Under the pieces are notes generated by a model. That model did not search any database. It saw nothing but the letters and a program-made list of their open reading frames with translations, and was not told where the DNA came from. Shown piece by piece: positions 7,558 to 16,149 of a stretch of DNA of 39,718 bases. The stretch covers positions 1 to 39,718 of the forward strand of contig CAYSOH010000001.1 of NCBI GenBank assembly GCA_964432625.1, given 5' to 3'. Numbering within the stretch: the stretch's first letter is position 1; each line of letters opens with the position of its first letter. The DNA comes from an uncultured archaeon. Its GTDB lineage: Archaea > Thermoplasmatota > Poseidoniia > MGIII > CG-Epi1. The position numbers were made by a program, and so were the translations under genes.

Positions 7558-10218
7558 GTGATACAGAAGACCCTAGAGAACGGAGTTCAGATTTATACGA
7601 ACATAATTATGAGGCATGCATTGATTACAATTTTAGTTCTCTCTCTAATTACCATTACATTCCTGAAAGCTGCACTAACGTTTGAAGAGAACATGACTCG
7701 TGATATAGAGGTCTATCTTCCTGATGGTGAAGAATCAACAAAGGTTTTGCTTGAAGTTAGAGAGGACTGGGCAACTGACTTGATAATTGTATATATTGAA
7801 ACTCCCAACGCCAAAAATCCTGATTATTTTAGTGATCCTGTTGTAGACAATATAACCTATGTCCCAACATTGTTAGAATTTGCCCTTCTGGAGCAAACTA
7901 TTGATCCCTATGGTCAAAATGTTGACTTGGAAGAAGGAGAACCTCATCAGGCTGACAGAGGAGAAAAGGACGGGATAATTTTCACTTTAAGTATTTCGAC
8001 ACTCATAAAAGAATTTAATTCAACAAATGCTCGTTTCATAGAAGCGACTGAAGACAAATTAGTGGGTGGTTTGAGCATAGAAGAAAATGATGATGAGGCT
8101 GTAAAAGAAACGGGAACATACGAAATACCAAATTATAGTGACCCCGATAGATCTCAGGAAAGGGTAGATCAGATTTATGACAGTACGTCTTCTGCACTAC
8201 AAAATTTTGCAATTGACACCAATGAAGATGGAATCATAGATACTGCAGTTATCCTATTTGCACTCAAAGCTCAAGGTGACAATAACGATGAAGCTCAAGA
8301 GGAAATGATTTCAAAAATACAACAGCATATCGATGAAAGACAATGTGCAGATCCAAATGACTGTACAGAAATGACACAGACTGGATTAGTTGTTGTACTT
8401 CATGAAGTCACTGCAAGATTGTATGAAGATCTTCTAACAATGTTACCAATGTCTCTGGGCATAGTTATAGGATTAATGTTGTTATTTCACAGGAACTGGC
8501 TAGCAATACCTGTAGTTCTTGTCCCAATTTTCTGTTCCCTGATATGGACTTTAGGGATTATTAGGCTTTCAGGAGTAGTACTTACACCTATGATTGTGGC
8601 TGCTGGACCAATCCTAGTCGGAATCGGTGTGGATTATGGATTACATGTAGCTAATAGAATTGTAGAATTCAAAGATGAAGGAAGGAAAATGCCGAGAGCT
8701 ACATTTCTGGCCTTGCTCACAACCGGAAAGGCCACTCTTCTATGTGCAATAACTGATACTATCGGTTTCTCTGCTTTGTTTATTTCACCGATAGAACCTA
8801 TGAGAACCGTTGGATTGACAATGATTGTCGGTGTGGCATGTGCTTTCTTCCTAACAGTAAGCATGACTCCAGCTATAATGAAAATTACAAATTACTCAAA
8901 ACATAAATCAAAAGGATGGACAAGCATAGCTGTCTTTTCAACAAAACAGTGGAAAGCCATACTAGTCATATTACTTCTTACAACAACTTATTCAATTGCA
9001 CGAATATCTGTAATGGATCAAGATATCAAAGGAAACGAATCTGCTCCAGATGAAATTGATTCCATTAAGAAATTGGGTGAATATTCTGAAAAATTCGAGG
9101 CCGGACAAACGGGGATATTACTGATAAATGGTCCTGAAAACCGACCAAAACCAGCTGCCAAGGATTTAGATGTACTGGATATAATGAATTGGACGCAAGG
9201 TGAAATCAATGACATATCTGTTTCAAATAGAAATACTGGTGATTTAATCAATATTTCTGCTTTCTCAATAGTTGATTTCTTCAAATCTGCACACGTCAAT
9301 TTTGTTATAGAAGACCTAAATGGAGATCCTGTATTCGAATATGATGGAACCTTCTGGGAATTTCTACATAGTGATTTCTTTGGAGAAAATTACACTTGGG
9401 TTGACATAAATCCGGTATACAGTAGGGAACAGCTTAGATCAGATATGATTGATGTTTTCTACGAATCATTCACTGATGAAATGCGCTCAATGCTGCTTAC
9501 TGATGAATATGATAAGGCGCTAATTTACATTAGCATGCCCTATGTCAATATAGATGACACCACAATAATAGTCAATAAAATAGATGAAATAGCTATAATC
9601 AGAGACAAACAAATGCACATAGAGGATGCAAAGATGTCTACTCTTACTGGTGGTCCACCTGTAACTATCGCTATAAACGAAGGAATTCAAAATACACAAT
9701 TTGACACCATCGCCTTGAGTCTAGTTCTTGTTCTAATCACAATGATGATTATTTTTAAATCTCCAAAGTTTGGTTTTATAACTTTCCTACCAATTTTCCT
9801 CGTTATTCTTTGGTATCCTGCAACTGTTGATGCTGGAGGAACAAATCTGAACATTTTCACGGCTATGGTAGGTACTATAATCATAGGTATAGGTATTGAT
9901 AATTCAATTCAAATCACAGAGAGAGTCAGGGAAGAAGGAACGCATCCTGAAGGAATACAGAAAGCTGTTGAAAACACTGGTCAATCTGTTGTGGAAGCAA
10001 CCTTCACAACAATGGGAGGTGTTTTCTCGGGAGTCATTATTTCTCTTTATAGAACACAGTTTGTAGGGCTTAGAAATTTCTTTGGACTTATTATCACACT
10101 GGTACTTTTCTCTCTATTGATGGCTGTTTTTGCTCTTCCAAGCTTTTACCATGCTCTGCACTATCTAAAACAAAAGTATGCTGAGAGAAATTGGAAAATA
10201 AGGACCAGATTTAACTAG
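7558..10218 (+). CDS. RND-superfamily (MMPL/HAE3-like) membrane exporter
   Basis: Two 5-6 helix bundles, each preceded by a large soluble loop. RND-type motifs GIGVDYGLH and GIGIDNSIQ. The start is GTG 7558, with ATG 7609 as an alternative. Confidence 0.75.
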   Translation: MIQKTLENGVQIYTNIIMRHALITILVLSLITITFLKAALTFEENMTRDIEVYLPDGEESTKVLLEVREDWATDLIIVYIETPNAKNPDYFSDPVVDNITYVPTLLEFALLEQTIDPYGQNVDLEEGEPHQADRGEKDGIIFTLSISTLIKEFNSTNARFIEATEDKLVGGLSIEENDDEAVKETGTYEIPNYSDPDRSQERVDQIYDSTSSALQNFAIDTNEDGIIDTAVILFALKAQGDNNDEAQEEMISKIQQHIDERQCADPNDCTEMTQTGLVVVLHEVTARLYEDLLTMLPMSLGIVIGLMLLFHRNWLAIPVVLVPIFCSLIWTLGIIRLSGVVLTPMIVAAGPILVGIGVDYGLHVANRIVEFKDEGRKMPRATFLALLTTGKATLLCAITDTIGFSALFISPIEPMRTVGLTMIVGVACAFFLTVSMTPAIMKITNYSKHKSKGWTSIAVFSTKQWKAILVILLLTTTYSIARISVMDQDIKGNESAPDEIDSIKKLGEYSEKFEAGQTGILLINGPENRPKPAAKDLDVLDIMNWTQGEINDISVSNRNTGDLINISAFSIVDFFKSAHVNFVIEDLNGDPVFEYDGTFWEFLHSDFFGENYTWVDINPVYSREQLRSDMIDVFYESFTDEMRSMLLTDEYDKALIYISMPYVNIDDTTIIVNKIDEIAIIRDKQMHIEDAKMSTLTGGPPVTIAINEGIQNTQFDTIALSLVLVLITMMIIFKSPKFGFITFLPIFLVILWYPATVDAGGTNLNIFTAMVGTIIIGIGIDNSIQITERVREEGTHPEGIQKAVENTGQSVVEATFTTMGGVFSGVIISLYRTQFVGLRNFFGLIITLVLFSLLMAVFALPSFYHALHYLKQKYAERNWKIRTRFN

Positions 10219-10615
10219 ATAGCATATCTCGCAAGGCGAGAATTGCTTTCCTTGCATAAGGTTTCAAACGATCATTGATATGTTCCATTTTAGCCCCTGG
10301 GCCTATGATTCCATAACCAATAGGTTTCATCGAAGCTAATTGAAGGTCTATTATCCCCTTAGTCACTGCATGACCCATTACCAAACCATGATCTGTCTCT
10401 CCTTTCTCAATTATTCCAAGAACAATAGCGCCATCTATAGATTCTCGGAGCAGTAAACGCTTCAGTTGTAAAGGAACCTCCATCGATCCAGGAACCCAAC
10501 AGATTTCCTCTAAAATCATGTCATTCTCTGAGGCCGTAATCTTTGCTTCTTCAACCATCTGTTCAACAAGTTCCTTATGAAAACTACCTGCCACTATTGC
10601 TATTGAATTAGCCAT
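10211..10615 (-). CDS. ribH: 6,7-dimethyl-8-ribityllumazine synthase
   Basis: VPGSMEVPLQLKRLL and GETDHGLVMGHAVTKGIIDL...GIIGPG match the archaeal lumazine synthase pattern. Lies in the rib operon. Confidence 0.85.
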   Translation of the reverse strand: MANSIAIVAGSFHKELVEQMVEEAKITASENDMILEEICWVPGSMEVPLQLKRLLLRESIDGAIVLGIIEKGETDHGLVMGHAVTKGIIDLQLASMKPIGYGIIGPGAKMEHINDRLKPYARKAILALRDMLSS

Positions 10616-11231
10616 TTATCGTCTCCTTTGAAACCACAGATATCGTATCTATCATATTCCTAGTCTGAGTTTCAATCTCTAGATTAATAGAATCTCCAAC
10701 CTCTTTACTTCCTAGATTTGTCAAACGCAAGGTCTCTGGAATCAAATAAACACTAAAACGATTGTCGGAACGGTTGACTTCACCAACCGTCAAACTGACA
10801 CCGTTCAGAGCAATGTATCCTTTAGTAAAGACGTATCGAATTACTTCTGAATTGGTCTGGAAAGTAATGACATGGTTGTTTTCAGGCTTGTCGATTTGGC
10901 AGATTGTAACCACATCAGAGACATGACCTGAAACTAAGTGACCACCAATCTCATCTCCTAGCTTTACCGATCTTTCAACATTCACAATATCATTCTCTTT
11001 TACATTATTCAGAGTAGTTACATCCAATGTCTCCATCATGACATCAAAACCCAAACAGTTAGACTCAATGGATGAAGTTGTTAGGCAGACTCCATCGACG
11101 CACACGCTACCTCCAATCTGCAAACCTGAAGAAAAATCAGGGGATGCCTCAATCTCCACTCTGTAAAGCCCTGTTTCTTTCGTAACACGAGAAACGACAG
11201 CTGTGCCTTCAACTATTCCTGAAAATACCAT
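10608..11231 (-). CDS. ribE: riboflavin synthase, bacterial/eukaryal two-barrel type
   Basis: MVFSGIVEGTA...GGSVCVDGVCLT...METLDVTTL, repeated in the second half as GHVSDV...IALNGVSLTV...PETLRLTNLG. Confidence 0.9.
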   Translation of the reverse strand: MVFSGIVEGTAVVSRVTKETGLYRVEIEASPDFSSGLQIGGSVCVDGVCLTTSSIESNCLGFDVMMETLDVTTLNNVKENDIVNVERSVKLGDEIGGHLVSGHVSDVVTICQIDKPENNHVITFQTNSEVIRYVFTKGYIALNGVSLTVGEVNRSDNRFSVYLIPETLRLTNLGSKEVGDSINLEIETQTRNMIDTISVVSKETING

Positions 11232-11237
11232 GAGACC

Positions 11238-11678
11238 TCATTCTGAACCATATTTCTTTTGATAAATTTTAATTATCTTTGAAATTATCTTTCGTGAACC
11301 TGCCAAATCCTGCTCCATTTCAGGCAAACGAACAACCTTGACTTTCAAACCTCGTTCAAGAAGTCTGGATTCAAGTTCTTCCCTAGTAAACAATCTTTGA
11401 TCATAACCTAAAGCAATAACGTCTGGCTTTATCTCTTCTACAATTATGTCAAGCATATTGCCTGTTCTTCCAATAACTGTCTGATCAACTGGTTTTAGAT
11501 GAGAAACAACCTCAGCTCTCATTTCATCAGACAAAATCGGTTCACCTTTCATTTTTCTTACGGTATCATCGTTAGCTACTATAACCACTAATTCATCCCC
11601 GTGTTCCTTAGCTGCGTTCAAAAAATGTGCATGTCCTGAATGGATTATGTCAAAGACTCCGGTAGCTACTACTTTCAT
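11238..11678 (-). CDS. ribL: FAD synthetase (archaeal RibL, cytidylyltransferase fold)
   Basis: MKVVATGVFDIIHSGHAHFL...ELVVIVANDDTV. I place the start at ATG 11678..11676, which overlaps the ribB TGA (ATGA). The track ORF extends to 11738. Confidence 0.85.
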   Translation of the reverse strand: MKVVATGVFDIIHSGHAHFLNAAKEHGDELVVIVANDDTVRKMKGEPILSDEMRAEVVSHLKPVDQTVIGRTGNMLDIIVEEIKPDVIALGYDQRLFTREELESRLLERGLKVKVVRLPEMEQDLAGSRKIISKIIKIYQKKYGSE

Positions 11679-12367
11679 TGGCACTCCTCCACAATTTGTC
11701 GGCCCTCTAAAAACAAGTGGCCCCTTTCTTCTGCCCATTCACGGGCTTCTTCTGGTGATAAAGCCTTACCATTATCAGATAACATCTCGCAGCCCAATGC
11801 CACTGGGTTGAGGTCAGCATATTTCATAAGTGCAACAATCAACTCTGTGTGCCCTTGCCTTCCCTTTAGAACTTCTTTATCTGCAATACAGACAGGAACA
11901 TGCCCTGGTATTCGAAAGCTGTTCGCCAAGTTCAATCTTGCTACTTCTTCTGGTAAATTTATAGAATCCTCTACAATTTCTGCAAATGATCTAGCTGTAA
12001 GCGACCTGTCATCATCTGTTATGCCTGTAAAAGTGTCCTTATGGTTTATGAACAAAGAGAATGAAGAGCGTGTATCATATGGCAATGAATGACTTAGCAT
12101 AGTATCAACAGAATCAAATCCTTTGGAATCTCTAATCAATGAACTATACATATCCTGTGCAAAGGGTAAGCCCAACTTCTCCGATGCTAGGTAAGATGAT
12201 GCAAGGAATACCATTCCTCCTCCTTCTTTTCTTAGAAACCTAACGTTGTCTGAATTGACTTGTTTGGCTGAAAAGAATATGTCTGTTTCACCCTCTCTAC
12301 TAGAATCATCGAATATCAGAATTGGATCTCCTCTAGTAAGAATTTTTGAAATATCTTCAATTGGCAA
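11675..12367 (-). CDS. ribB: 3,4-dihydroxy-2-butanone 4-phosphate synthase
   Basis: ILIFDDSSREGETDIFF, GGGMVFLA, SSFSLFINHKDTFTGITDDDR, FRIPGHV, GRQGHTEL. Confidence 0.9.
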   Translation of the reverse strand: MPIEDISKILTRGDPILIFDDSSREGETDIFFSAKQVNSDNVRFLRKEGGGMVFLASSYLASEKLGLPFAQDMYSSLIRDSKGFDSVDTMLSHSLPYDTRSSFSLFINHKDTFTGITDDDRSLTARSFAEIVEDSINLPEEVARLNLANSFRIPGHVPVCIADKEVLKGRQGHTELIVALMKYADLNPVALGCEMLSDNGKALSPEEAREWAEERGHLFLEGRQIVEECQ

Positions 12368-12458: not shown

Positions 12459-13013
12459 TTAAGATAAATCGTAGACTGCTCTATCTAATCTAGCTGAAGA
12501 GGTAGCTTTTTGGCTGATATATCTTGTACAAGAAAGATCTCCTGCAACTAATTTAACTATCATCAAAGAACCTGGGTCTCTATTACAAATTAGGGGATCC
12601 TTATCCGGAGAAGTATAAAGATCATATCCTCCCCATTCCTGCTTCCAACCTTCTGTAAAATCATAAGCTACTACTAGTCTTTCAGCTTCTGATTCCTCAG
12701 CATGAAGGAGGGAATAATCACCGGCAGAATATGAAATATGATTTGTCGATCGGAGCTTTGGTTTCAAACCTGTGGAATCTCTAAGAAACTCTATAAATTC
12801 GGAAGAATTCCAAAAACTCTCAAGAATAGCTTTACCTTCATCACGATTATAATATCCTATTTTCTCTTTTCTACTCAATTTTGACTCTTTGGTATCTGAA
12901 AGCGGTTCTAGAAATTTTGACAGGCGGATAAAAGGGATGTCGCCGGAACCAAAGATTCTTTTCAGATTTAGAAGTGTGGGTTTCTCTAGATAATAGAAAT
13001 TCATCTCAGCCAT
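12459..13013 (-). CDS. OGFOD1/Tpa1/Ofd1 C-terminal (non-catalytic DSBH) domain-like protein
   Basis: GDYSLLHAEE, EGWKQEWGGYDLY and SLMIVKL...TRYISQKA resemble the C-terminal domain of OGFOD1 as I recall it. The ATG overlaps the stop of the catalytic-domain ORF by 8 nt. Confidence 0.5.
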   Translation of the reverse strand: MAEMNFYYLEKPTLLNLKRIFGSGDIPFIRLSKFLEPLSDTKESKLSRKEKIGYYNRDEGKAILESFWNSSEFIEFLRDSTGLKPKLRSTNHISYSAGDYSLLHAEESEAERLVVAYDFTEGWKQEWGGYDLYTSPDKDPLICNRDPGSLMIVKLVAGDLSCTRYISQKATSSARLDRAVYDLS

Positions 13014-13581
13014 GGTACCACCCCGTTACTGTCAATCTCTGTATATCCATCAAGATTTCACTAACCTCATGCCAGGAGTGGTCTGAGACTTCAAACATTA
13101 TCAAAGAATTATACTCGGGAATTATACTGTCAACCAATTTGGATTTGCCTTTATCATCAGCTTCAAATACGTTAAGTGCGCCACCCATTTCTTCAGTGAT
13201 TTCTGGAGTAAGGTGTAAACTGTAGGCAATAATGCGCCCTTCTACCTGATCATCGTGTGGAAGAAGAAAATCTCCTAAACCATAAACGTAAGCGGCCATA
13301 TCTATATTTGATAATTCTTTAACATTGAAAGACTTAGAAACTTTTTCACGCCAAGGTTTGTCGCCTAAATCATCACGTAGAATATTGATTGCTGGATGAT
13401 TGATATCTGTCAATTCCACACTTGCCCAGTAGCTAAACAAATCTGACTCCTTGAAATCGTATTCCAATCCTGCTAGAGCATCAATAACCAAGTCTAAGGT
13501 TGGCGCATCAAGAAAGTCTCGGACGACAACGTGTGGAAACGGCTTTGATTTAATTTTTGGAATTTTGTCTGCGTTACGCAT
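13006..13581 (-). CDS. 2-oxoglutarate/Fe(II) oxygenase, OGFOD1/Tpa1-like catalytic domain
   Basis: PFPHVVVRDFL, DLFSYWASVEL, LLPHDDQVEGRIIAYSLHL (HxD), NSLIMFEVSDHSWHEVSEI (distal His), RLTVTGWYHG. Confidence 0.75.
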   Translation of the reverse strand: MRNADKIPKIKSKPFPHVVVRDFLDAPTLDLVIDALAGLEYDFKESDLFSYWASVELTDINHPAINILRDDLGDKPWREKVSKSFNVKELSNIDMAAYVYGLGDFLLPHDDQVEGRIIAYSLHLTPEITEEMGGALNVFEADDKGKSKLVDSIIPEYNSLIMFEVSDHSWHEVSEILMDIQRLTVTGWYHG

Positions 13582-14530
13582 CGTTCCTCCTTAGCCAGTT
13601 TAACATTCCTTCAACCGAACCCAAGTGTGTAGCTGTTTGATGAACTCCGTGATTCATATCTGTCTTCCTAAGGCCAGGTCTAGCATCAAATAAAATATTG
13701 ACTATTTCATCAACTGAATAATTTTTTCTATGACCTTCTTCGACAATCTCCATCCAAATCTCAAATTCAGATTTTACTTGAGATAACGCTCCTTCGGCTG
13801 GCCTAGGTCCAAAATGTGTATAGTGAATGTATTCCAATTCAAGCTTTGACATTCTGTCAATACTATCAAGTGCTAGATCATGGCGGTAATATCCTGGAGT
13901 TACAGGAAATGAAGTATTCAAATCAGAATACCATAATCCTAGAGAATCACCAACAAACGCCTCATCACCATAAACCCATGTTATGTGATGTGGAGCATGA
14001 CCTGGAGTATGAAGTGCCACCAATGATGTTTTCCCAAGTGACAATTCATAACCATCCTCTGCTGAAATTAGATTTGATTCCGATATTGGAATAGGTTTAC
14101 CATAAAGTTCAGCAATTTTGCCTAAAAAATCTACGCTTCCTTTCCACCAATTATCTATATTCGATACATGTTTGTATGCTTTAGGATGTACAACTGCTTT
14201 AGCATTAGGGCATAAATTCATTATATGTCCACCACCGCCAAAATGATCCAGATGGATGTGTGTAGGTACAACATAATCTACATCTTCTAAACCAATACCT
14301 ATAGAATTTAGGCCTTGTACTAGATTTGAGGTTGAACTAGCGGGGCCTGTCTCTATAAGAACAGTTTTTTCATCTATAATCACATAGACTGATACGAAAT
14401 TCTTCTCTCCATGAGGCATAACATCAAACCAAAACACGCTATCGCTATGTTTGTTTATTGATGGAGACACAAACAATCTATAGAAAAGGGGTTTAAGTTG
14501 ACCGACGGCCTTATAGTGGGCTATTGGCAT
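13574..14530 (-). CDS. MBL-fold metallo-hydrolase
   Basis: [15 protein letters not shown] (HxHxDH), [20 protein letters not shown]. Confidence 0.8.
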
Positions 14531-14550
14531 GTATTAGCCCGTTGAGTCAA

Positions 14551-16149
14551 ATGAAGTACATAATTGTGACCGGCGGTGTCCTTTCAGGCCTAGGTAAAGG
14601 CATAACTTCTTCTTCAACTGGCCTCTTATTACAATGTGCCGGGTATGAAGTCACGGCTGTAAAAATTGATCCTTATCTGAATGTAGATGCTGGAACAATG
14701 AACCCTTATGAACACGGTGAAGTCTTTGTAATGACTGACGGTTCTGAAGTCGATTTAGATCTTGGAAATTACGAAAGATTCTTACGATGTAATCTCACTA
14801 GTGAACACAACATAACTACCGGGAAAGTTTACAAAAAAGTTATAGAAAAAGAGAGGCGTGGTGATTACCTAGGGCAGACTGTACAAATTATACCACATAT
14901 TGTGAGAGAGATTGTAGATGGGATAAAAAATGCAGCAAAGGATGCTAAAGCCGATGTTTGTTTAATAGAATTAGGGGGGACTGTGGGAGACATCGAATCT
15001 ATGCCCTTTATGGAAGCTGCGCGCCTGTTAGGACGTGAGGAGGGACGTGAAAATGTGATGTTCATCCACACAACATTGGTACCTGTCTTGGGTTCAGTTG
15101 GTGAGCAGAAAACAAAACCTACACAGCATTCTGTAAAGGAACTACAGGGACTTGGAATTAGACCTGACGTAATAGTTGGAAGAAGTGACAAAGTCCTAGA
15201 CGAGGATATAGCATCCAAAATCGCATTTTTTGCAGATATACCGAGAGAAGCTGTAATTTCAGCACCTGATGCGAAGAGTATCTATGAAGTTCCATTAATA
15301 TTCCTAAAACAAAAATTTCCTGAATTGATAGAAAACAGACTTGGTCTCAAAACCAAGAAACCTGATGTAAAAAAATGGACAGATTTTGTAAATCGTATAA
15401 CAAATGGTGGTGAAGAGGTTGAAATTGCAATTATTGGAAAATACACTTCCCTAAAGGATTCCTATATCTCACATGAAGAAACACTGAGATATGCTGGTGC
15501 TGTTTTAGGTTGCAAAGTCAAGATAAGATGGATTGAAGCCCCAGATCTTGAAGATTCAGGGAGCACAGAGATGCTTGAAGGAGTACATGGTGTTATTGTT
15601 CCAGGAGGATTTGGAAAGAGAGGATCTGAAGGTAAAATAATGAGTGCGGGGTGGGCAAGAGAAAATCAAGTACCATACTTGGGTGTCTGTTTCGGTTTCC
15701 AATTAGCTACTGTAGAATTTTGTAGAAATGTATTAGGTCTAAAAGGTGCTAATTCCTCAGAATTAGACCCAGATGGACCGCACTCCGTTGTTGATATTCT
15801 TCCTGAACAAGAAGGCATAAAGGATATGGGAGCCACAATGCGACTTGGTGATCATGAAGTGATTGTCTCAAATGGAAAAGCAAAAGAACTATACGGTAAA
15901 GATGTCATATCCGAGAGACATCGGCACAGATATGAAATAAATCCTGAATATATTGAAAAAATAGAATCTAATGGGATGAAATACACAGGAAGAAATTCAA
16001 GTGGTAGGAGGATGGAAATACTAGAATTGGAAGATCATCCATACTTTGTTGCCTCTCAATTTCATCCTGAATTTAAGTCACGACCAGATGAACCGTCACC
16101 ATTGCATCTCGGTCTAGTTAAGGCAGCTCTGGAGAAAAAGAATAACTGA
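14551..16149 (+). CDS. pyrG: CTP synthase
   Basis: [48 protein letters not shown], GATase block GVCFGFQ...HRHRYE. I use ATG 14551; the track TTG at 14524 would overlap the divergent gene. Confidence 0.95.

Follow-up and report, generated by a model that had tools for sequence, protein, structure and literature searches.

The human enzyme OGFOD1 (PDB 4nhx and 4nhy), a trans-3-prolyl hydroxylase of Pro62 in the ribosomal protein uS12 (RPS23), and the uS12 prolyl 3,4-dihydroxylases Tpa1 of S. cerevisiae and Ofd1 of S. pombe (PDB 3kt1, 3mgu, 4nhk and 6e0t) share an architecture of two double-stranded beta-helix (DSBH) domains. In the eukaryotic enzymes the C-terminal domain is packed onto the catalytic one and presumably assists in binding substrate or partner proteins. 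Characterised enzymes with this two-domain combination (OGFOD1, Tpa1, Ofd1 and Sudestada1) all act on uS12. Here we report that a 39,718-nucleotide stretch of DNA from a Marine Group III archaeon of the CG-Epi1 lineage (contig CAYSOH010000001.1; hereafter the window) carries the same two domains, with the same catalytic motifs, in two overlapping open reading frames, ORF1 and ORF2. Together these probably encode a two-subunit, Fe(II)- and 2-oxoglutarate (2OG)-dependent prolyl hydroxylase of the OGFOD1/Tpa1 type that acts on uS12.

In OGFOD1 the N-terminal domain covers residues 24–238, with the C-terminal domain at residues 270–542; a proline-rich linker of 31 residues (239–269) lies between them, and residues 371–430 form an acidic disordered insert (Horita et al.). 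Iron is held by the triad His155/Asp157/His218 and 2OG by Arg230 (PMC4396695). The OGFOD1 subfamily has been described as 'found only in eukaryotes' (PMC4396695), protein modification by 2OG oxygenases has been called common in eukaryotes and in many of the prokaryotes 'but not archaea' (PMC4543633), and ribosomal oxygenases were said to 'appear not to be present in archaea' (PMC5862935).

The two genes lie on the minus strand, ORF1 at 13581..13006 and ORF2 at 13013..12459, as had been proposed in a first-pass annotation made from the letters of the window. Their features are as follows.

13006-13581, minus strand: ORF1, 191 aa, catalytic Fe(II)/2OG oxygenase domain, counterpart of the N-terminal domain of OGFOD1
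13257-13255, minus strand: ORF1 H109, predicted iron ligand
13251-13249, minus strand: ORF1 D111, predicted iron ligand
13071-13069, minus strand: ORF1 H171, predicted iron ligand
13038-13036, minus strand: ORF1 R182, predicted 2OG-binding residue, in an R-x-T motif
13024-13018, minus strand: G-rich stretch GGGGTGG, just upstream of the ORF1/ORF2 overlap
13006-13013, minus strand: ORF1/ORF2 overlap of 8 nt, ATGGCTGA, read from the sequence
13013-13011, minus strand: ORF2 start codon ATG, inside the last codons of ORF1
13008-13006, minus strand: ORF1 stop codon TGA
12459-13013, minus strand: ORF2, 184 aa, second DSBH domain (Ofd1_CTDD type), non-catalytic

In Pfam, ORF1 matched the family PF13661 (2OG-FeII_Oxy_4) with 89.8 bits and an E-value of 1.7e-25 (cut-off 27). 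A single-sequence HMMER search of the PDB aligned its residues 12–191 to residues 78–259 of the OGFOD1 chain 4nhx (E 6.7e-28) and also retrieved Tpa1 (E 5e-10). The segments that the first-pass annotation had aligned with OGFOD1 were recovered by HMMER in the same register (DLFSYWASVEL/DLYKFQQSDDL, LLPHDDQVEGR/LLCHDDELEGR, FEVSDHSWHEVSEI/FEVSPVSFHQVSEV and RLTVTGWYHG/RLSISGWFHG). With a profile built from 22 archaeal ORF1 homologues the score rose to 182 bits (9e-53) for OGFOD1 and 103 bits for Tpa1, against 40 bits for PolD, the best of the other hydroxylases, and 20 bits for PHD2; the assignment of ORF1 to a different 2OG-oxygenase subfamily was thus not borne out. The family of the cyclophane-peptide 2OG oxygenase YhhC (NCBIfam NF041706) was also considered and rejected, as the match reached 54.2 bits against a cut-off of 150.

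The AlphaFold model of ORF1 (pLDDT 87, pTM 0.86) led to the same relatives. Its closest fold was OGFOD1, at TM 0.85 and 31–35% identity, followed by Tpa1 at TM 0.78–0.83, whereas PolD, PasI, P4H and PHD2 gave 0.60–0.73. The prokaryotic enzymes Pseudomonas PPHD/P4H (acting on EF-Tu), PolD and PasI have the same prolyl-hydroxylase-like DSBH fold and iron triad; however, they have no second DSBH partner and stay well behind OGFOD1 both in profile score (≤40 versus 182 bits) and in structural similarity (TM 0.6–0.73 versus 0.85). By alignment, H109, D111, H171 and R182 of ORF1 correspond to H155, D157, H218 and R230 of OGFOD1, and all four are invariant in 22 aligned archaeal sequences from Marine Group III and DPANN archaea.

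ORF2 matched PF10637 (Ofd1_CTDD) with 33.1 bits, above the cut-off of 27, and in a single-sequence HMMER search its residues 95–169 aligned to residues 462–539 of the OGFOD1 chain (E 1.3e-4). Here too the alignments with OGFOD1 given in the first-pass annotation reappeared (GDYSLLHAEE/GHYTLIHDH and EGWKQEWGGYDLY/EGWEPEYGGFTSY). A profile built from 36 ORF2 homologues was run against the whole PDB and matched only OGFOD1 (2.1e-30), the C-terminal domain of S. pombe Ofd1 (2.4e-9) and Tpa1 (1.5e-8), in agreement with the similarity to the Ofd1 C-terminal domain that had been proposed for this ORF. The model of ORF2 (AlphaFold, pLDDT 94.3, pTM 0.89) was compared by Foldseek and resembled OGFOD1 (TM 0.85), the Ofd1 C-terminal domain 6e0t (0.81) and Tpa1 (0.78), with other oxygenases at 0.72 or below. 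Conserved motifs of ORF2 are GDYSLLH, EWGG and CTRY. In the window's lineage the alignment lacks the distal histidine, and the ORF2-type domain is therefore taken to be non-catalytic, as it is in eukaryotes.

To place the gene boundary on OGFOD1 we converted the numbering of the 4nhx chain, which is the native numbering plus 20, as verified on the published triad. The end of ORF1 falls at native residue 239, next to the published end of the catalytic domain at 238, so that the proposal that ORF1 stops where this domain stops was confirmed. The ORF2-family profile covers chain residues 289–387 and 455–545, i.e. native 269–367 and 435–525, which is the entire C-terminal domain of OGFOD1 except for the acidic disordered insert. 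As ORF1 ends at 239 and the ORF2 family begins at 269, the gene boundary takes the place of the 31-residue linker. A few residues into ORF2 comes an (I)NxxYL motif; the C-terminal domains of OGFOD1 (WINPTYL) and of fused relatives begin with it too.

The archaeal pair is thus like OGFOD1, the closest match of both ORFs, in its iron triad, its 2OG arginine and its order of domains. It differs from OGFOD1 in that the domains are on two polypeptides, the inter-domain linker and the acidic insert are missing, and the host is an archaeon rather than a eukaryote. From Tpa1, to which the ORF1 profile is also less similar than to OGFOD1, it differs by the absence of the 95-residue helical linker and of the dimerisation inserts. 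Because it is made of two genes with an 8-nt overlap, and not of one linker-joined polypeptide, the pair is a split variant of the OGFOD1/Tpa1/Ofd1 subfamily and not an ordinary member of it.

We then compared the junction in 30 species-representative genomes (CG-Epi1 and CG-Bathy1 of Marine Group III, 'Poseidoniales' and two that bear the label Thalassarchaeaceae), among which ORF1 identity falls to 47%. The sequence TGG TAY CAT GNN TRA with its embedded ATG is kept in 29 of the 30 loci, and the stop codon of ORF1 is either TGA or TAA. In the one exception, Marine Group III LRMED-002 (L019:3060-3080), the ORF2 homologue has ATC in place of ATG (CATCGCTGA), with the position of the ORF1 stop unchanged; possible explanations are an unusual start codon, an error in sequencing or a start that was lost recently. 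The lengths of the two proteins are fixed as well. ORF1 homologues have 191 aa in more than 100 protein clusters (78–100% identity) and ORF2 homologues 184 aa in about 60 (58–98%), in each case from independent assemblies. The dN/dS ratio to the closest relative, the only pair for which it is quoted since synonymous sites are saturated in more distant pairs, is 0.045 for ORF1 and 0.054 for ORF2, and both genes are under strong purifying selection. The 8-nt overlap is likely to be a termination-reinitiation junction, i.e. a site of translational coupling.

Among Thermoplasmatota, the Marine Group III order alone was found to have both genes. In a sample of 401 genomes the two profiles agreed in matching all genomes (10 of 10) from the window's family, and the adjacent pair was also present in both genomes (2/2) of a second family of the same Marine Group III order. 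In the class's two large sister families neither profile had a match (0 of 36 and 0 of 58 genomes), and in the approximately 390 other Thermoplasmatota genomes sampled neither gene was found, save for one weak match of the C-terminal-domain profile. This match (G143:C1:2075-2329; E 1.2e-6, 29 bits) is in an unrelated family, in a genome without a catalytic-domain match, and is probably another DSBH protein. Control genomes of Methanocaldococcus, Haloferax, Sulfolobus and Methanosarcina gave no match to PF13661 or PF10637. The pair thus characterises the order Marine Group III, not Marine Group II.

An exhaustive search with ORF2 extended the family beyond Thermoplasmatota. It returned mostly stand-alone proteins of 170–215 aa (25–35% identity) that match the full Ofd1_CTDD model, two of them named Candidatus Woesearchaeota, and a few fused proteins of 420–520 aa with both domains, which we call eukaryote-type because they group with human OGFOD1. 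On all seven DPANN contigs examined, a 2OG-FeII_Oxy_4 gene (185–214 aa) lies directly upstream of the ORF2-type gene, and the neighbouring genes are archaeal (PCNA, RadA, eIF2-alpha, S27e and TFS). These Woesearchaeota-type pairs, like the other Marine Group III pairs, have the same genes in the same order with short overlaps (1–17 nt in DPANN); the end of the first gene reads GW[FL]H(G), or GW[YFL]H(G) when the window's lineage is included, and a few residues separate the start of the second from NxxYL. The DPANN copies are 30–36% identical to ORF1 of the window and 19–26% to ORF2, and they keep a YVNH motif where the window's lineage has YISQ. Sixty-eight of 401 sampled genomes of one DPANN phylum carry an ORF2-type gene (E ≤ 1e-20), and none of these genes is fused, since their open frames are only 142–297 aa long. 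In every locus examined, 30 from Marine Group III and seven from DPANN, the two genes of the pair are adjacent. A nickel superoxide dismutase gene is located about 300 nt downstream of one DPANN pair on the opposite strand (L014:3876-4319), which hints that this host meets oxygen, as an O2-dependent enzyme requires.

These comparisons decide how the junction should be read. The window comes from a fragmented metagenome-assembled genome of 74% completeness, where a sequencing or assembly frameshift could break one fused gene, or where a recently broken pseudogene might be met. Against this stand the fixed lengths of both proteins across independent assemblies, the shared ATG-in-stop junction with its two different stop codons, the low dN/dS ratios (about 0.05 in both genes), and the DPANN archaea, which have the identical architecture with other overlap lengths and in which the longest open frame among 68 genomes is 297 aa. 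An artefact is thereby effectively refuted, and we give it practically no weight. The split between ORF1 and ORF2 is genuine and not a sequencing error, as argued by the conserved junction, the two stop codons, the dN/dS values and the same layout in DPANN; the two-gene arrangement put forward in the first-pass annotation therefore held, with the frameshift that could have undone it not borne out. A real junction might still be read through by a programmed +1 ribosomal frameshift, which would give one fused OGFOD1-like polypeptide. Relative to ORF1, ORF2 is indeed in the +1 frame, and within Marine Group III the junction is strongly conserved in sequence. However, the conserved bases are explained by the residues G-W-Y-H together with the embedded ATG and the stop, the DPANN overlaps measure 1, 8, 13, 14 and 17 nt with differing sequences, and a start codon of its own always opens ORF2 shortly before (I)NxxYL. 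We consider such a frameshift very improbable.

The two archaeal subunits also resemble each other. The C-terminal-domain profile detects the neighbouring catalytic-domain genes with E-values of 1e-11 to 1e-19 (for example, G436:C7:8378-8908 at 3.6e-19 and G435:C12:39242-39688 at 1.7e-11), and in an unpaired alignment MAFFT places C-terminal-domain sequences onto the N-terminal domain. To judge from these sequence matches, the subunits are recognisable paralogues, more clearly so than the two domains of human OGFOD1, for which 12% identity has been reported. The second domain has been proposed to have arisen by duplication of the first (Horita et al.), and both the cross-detection by the profile and the MAFFT overlay fit such an origin.

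A tree of the N-terminal domain alone did not resolve the deep branches. We therefore aligned the N- and C-terminal domains separately and combined them into a supermatrix of 376 columns, with Tpa1 and PolD left out. In the resulting unrooted tree, Marine Group III forms a clade with support of 100/100, and all four fused proteins join human OGFOD1 in another (100/100). The DPANN sequences make two clades (97/95 and 95/89) whose placement relative to the fused clade is open, and no archaeal gene falls within the eukaryote-type clade. At this sampling the tree is consistent with a single event of fusion or fission, in either direction. Being unrooted, it is compatible with the first-pass suggestion that the archaeal pair is an evolutionary intermediate of the eukaryotic fusion, and also with the reverse course.

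From these results a mechanism can be proposed. ORF1 would be the catalytic subunit, binding iron through H109, D111 and H171 and 2OG through R182, and ORF2 its non-catalytic partner, the counterpart of the eukaryotic C-terminal domain. Translational coupling at the 8-nt overlap would supply matched amounts of both subunits, which may assemble non-covalently, as a heterodimer, into the form that is a single chain in eukaryotes. Their exact co-occurrence, their adjacency in all loci and the purifying selection on both suggest that the two act as one unit. Using O2, the pair would hydroxylate the conserved proline of uS12 (in the KQPNS loop of the decoding centre), and this modification may tune decoding or termination.

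The first-pass annotation had pointed to the target proline and its neighbours in the uS12 of this lineage as a place to look. We found the proline present: uS12 of the window's genome, encoded on contig 28, is identical at 18 of 20 positions to a human 20-mer, the peptide that OGFOD1 hydroxylates in vitro. The 31–35% identity of ORF1 to OGFOD1 in the structural matches is comparable to the 33% published for the catalytic domains of OGFOD1 and Tpa1, which share the uS12 substrate (Horita et al.). From the homology and the conserved target we infer that the archaeal pair may hydroxylate uS12.

Several observations weigh against this assignment. The uS12 loop is equally conserved in many archaea without the genes; being universal in archaea, it is permissive and not diagnostic. 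The distribution of the pair is patchy (one Thermoplasmatota order and about 17% of the sampled DPANN genomes), and the modification would therefore be dispensable for archaeal decoding. Two positions of OGFOD1 differ in ORF1, where Tyr169 is replaced by His123 and Ser232 by Thr, so that the R-x-S motif reads R-x-T. The nearest structural neighbours other than OGFOD1, PolD and PasI, act on small molecules.

The main rival to uS12 as the target is accordingly a different substrate for the same two-subunit oxygenase, be it another translation-associated protein, a small molecule or a free amino acid. Among the relatives of the pair PolD and PasI, the next-best structural ones, modify nucleoside antibiotic precursors, and PPHD and PHD2 hydroxylate EF-Tu and HIF. 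In the window's family the pair is moreover strung together with an MBL-fold hydrolase gene and riboflavin genes, and the weak YhhC match (54 bits, below the cut-off of 150) is to a peptide-modifying oxygenase. On the other hand, every characterised enzyme of this domain combination acts on uS12, the score gap is large (182 bits for OGFOD1 and 103 for Tpa1 versus 40 for the next), and the neighbouring genes are not conserved outside one family, hence they give no metabolic context. We regard a different substrate as rather unlikely, and prolyl hydroxylation of uS12 by a two-subunit OGFOD1/Tpa1-type enzyme as the probable function of the pair.

In the window the pair belongs to a longer series of genes on the minus strand, in the order MBL-fold gene, ORF1, ORF2, a gap of 91 nt and ribB-ribL-ribE-ribH; pyrG (CTP synthase) is upstream and divergent. 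The gene that precedes ORF1 is the following.

13574-14530, minus strand: MBL-fold metallo-hydrolase gene, 318 aa as listed, PF00753 at E 9.4e-25

This gene overlaps the start of ORF1 by 8 nt, and the claim that the pair is chained behind an MBL-fold hydrolase was correct for the window as regards both the family and the position directly upstream. This neighbourhood is specific to the lineage. In all of the loci from the window's family (30 of 30) the MBL-fold gene lies directly upstream, whereas the sister family has a 40%-identical homologue on another contig than the pair, and no MBL gene adjoins the pairs on the seven DPANN contigs. A role as functional partner was rejected because the linkage is limited to one family, and we regard the gene as a case of local synteny that has been conserved, outside the system itself. 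Its closest match in the PDB is the uncharacterised Sulfolobus protein ST1585 (1.9e-18). The longest MBL ORF (ATG 14530) and the longest pyrG ORF (TTG 14524) would overlap head to head (14476-14551); in relatives the MBL gene is called at 300 aa with a spacer of about 78 nt to pyrG, and the listed starts of both genes are probably too far upstream.

Downstream, the riboflavin/FAD genes ribB-ribL-ribE-ribH occupy 10211-12367 on the same strand as ORF1 and ORF2. ribB comes after the pair in 27 of the 30 related loci from Marine Group III, and the whole string is present in four of the relatives' loci (L002-L005). A gene that encodes ABCE1, a ribosome-recycling factor (Fer4_RLI and ABC domains), was also seen in relatives about 5 kb downstream of the pair (L005:11450-12555), which is probably coincidental synteny.

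The host contigs are archaeal, as seen from the names Marine Group III and Woesearchaeota and from archaeal neighbour genes, so the restriction of the subfamily to eukaryotes does not hold. At the level of gene content the pair contradicts all three statements quoted at the outset (PMC4396695, PMC4543633 and PMC5862935). In the searchable open literature we found no report of an archaeal OGFOD1. Automatic annotation is already apt, as homologues of ORF1 are labelled 'Rps23 Pro-64 3,4-dihydroxylase Tpa1-like' by JGI and those of ORF2 Ofd1_CTDD by Pfam.

The natural separation of the catalytic and non-catalytic domains lets the role of the C-terminal domain be tested by omitting one subunit; the proteins are small, and the human enzyme already has an established peptide substrate. 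If the pair is active on uS12, archaea would have in it their first oxygen-dependent modification of the ribosome, and it would bear on the origin of the eukaryotic enzyme. One may tentatively go further and suppose that some archaea, namely Marine Group III and many DPANN lineages, use an O2-dependent two-subunit enzyme to hydroxylate the uS12 proline at the decoding centre, and that the eukaryotic OGFOD1/Tpa1 then arose by fusion of such a pair. We hold this full scenario to be possible yet doubtful; if it is true, one more feature of eukaryotic translation control would have archaeal roots.

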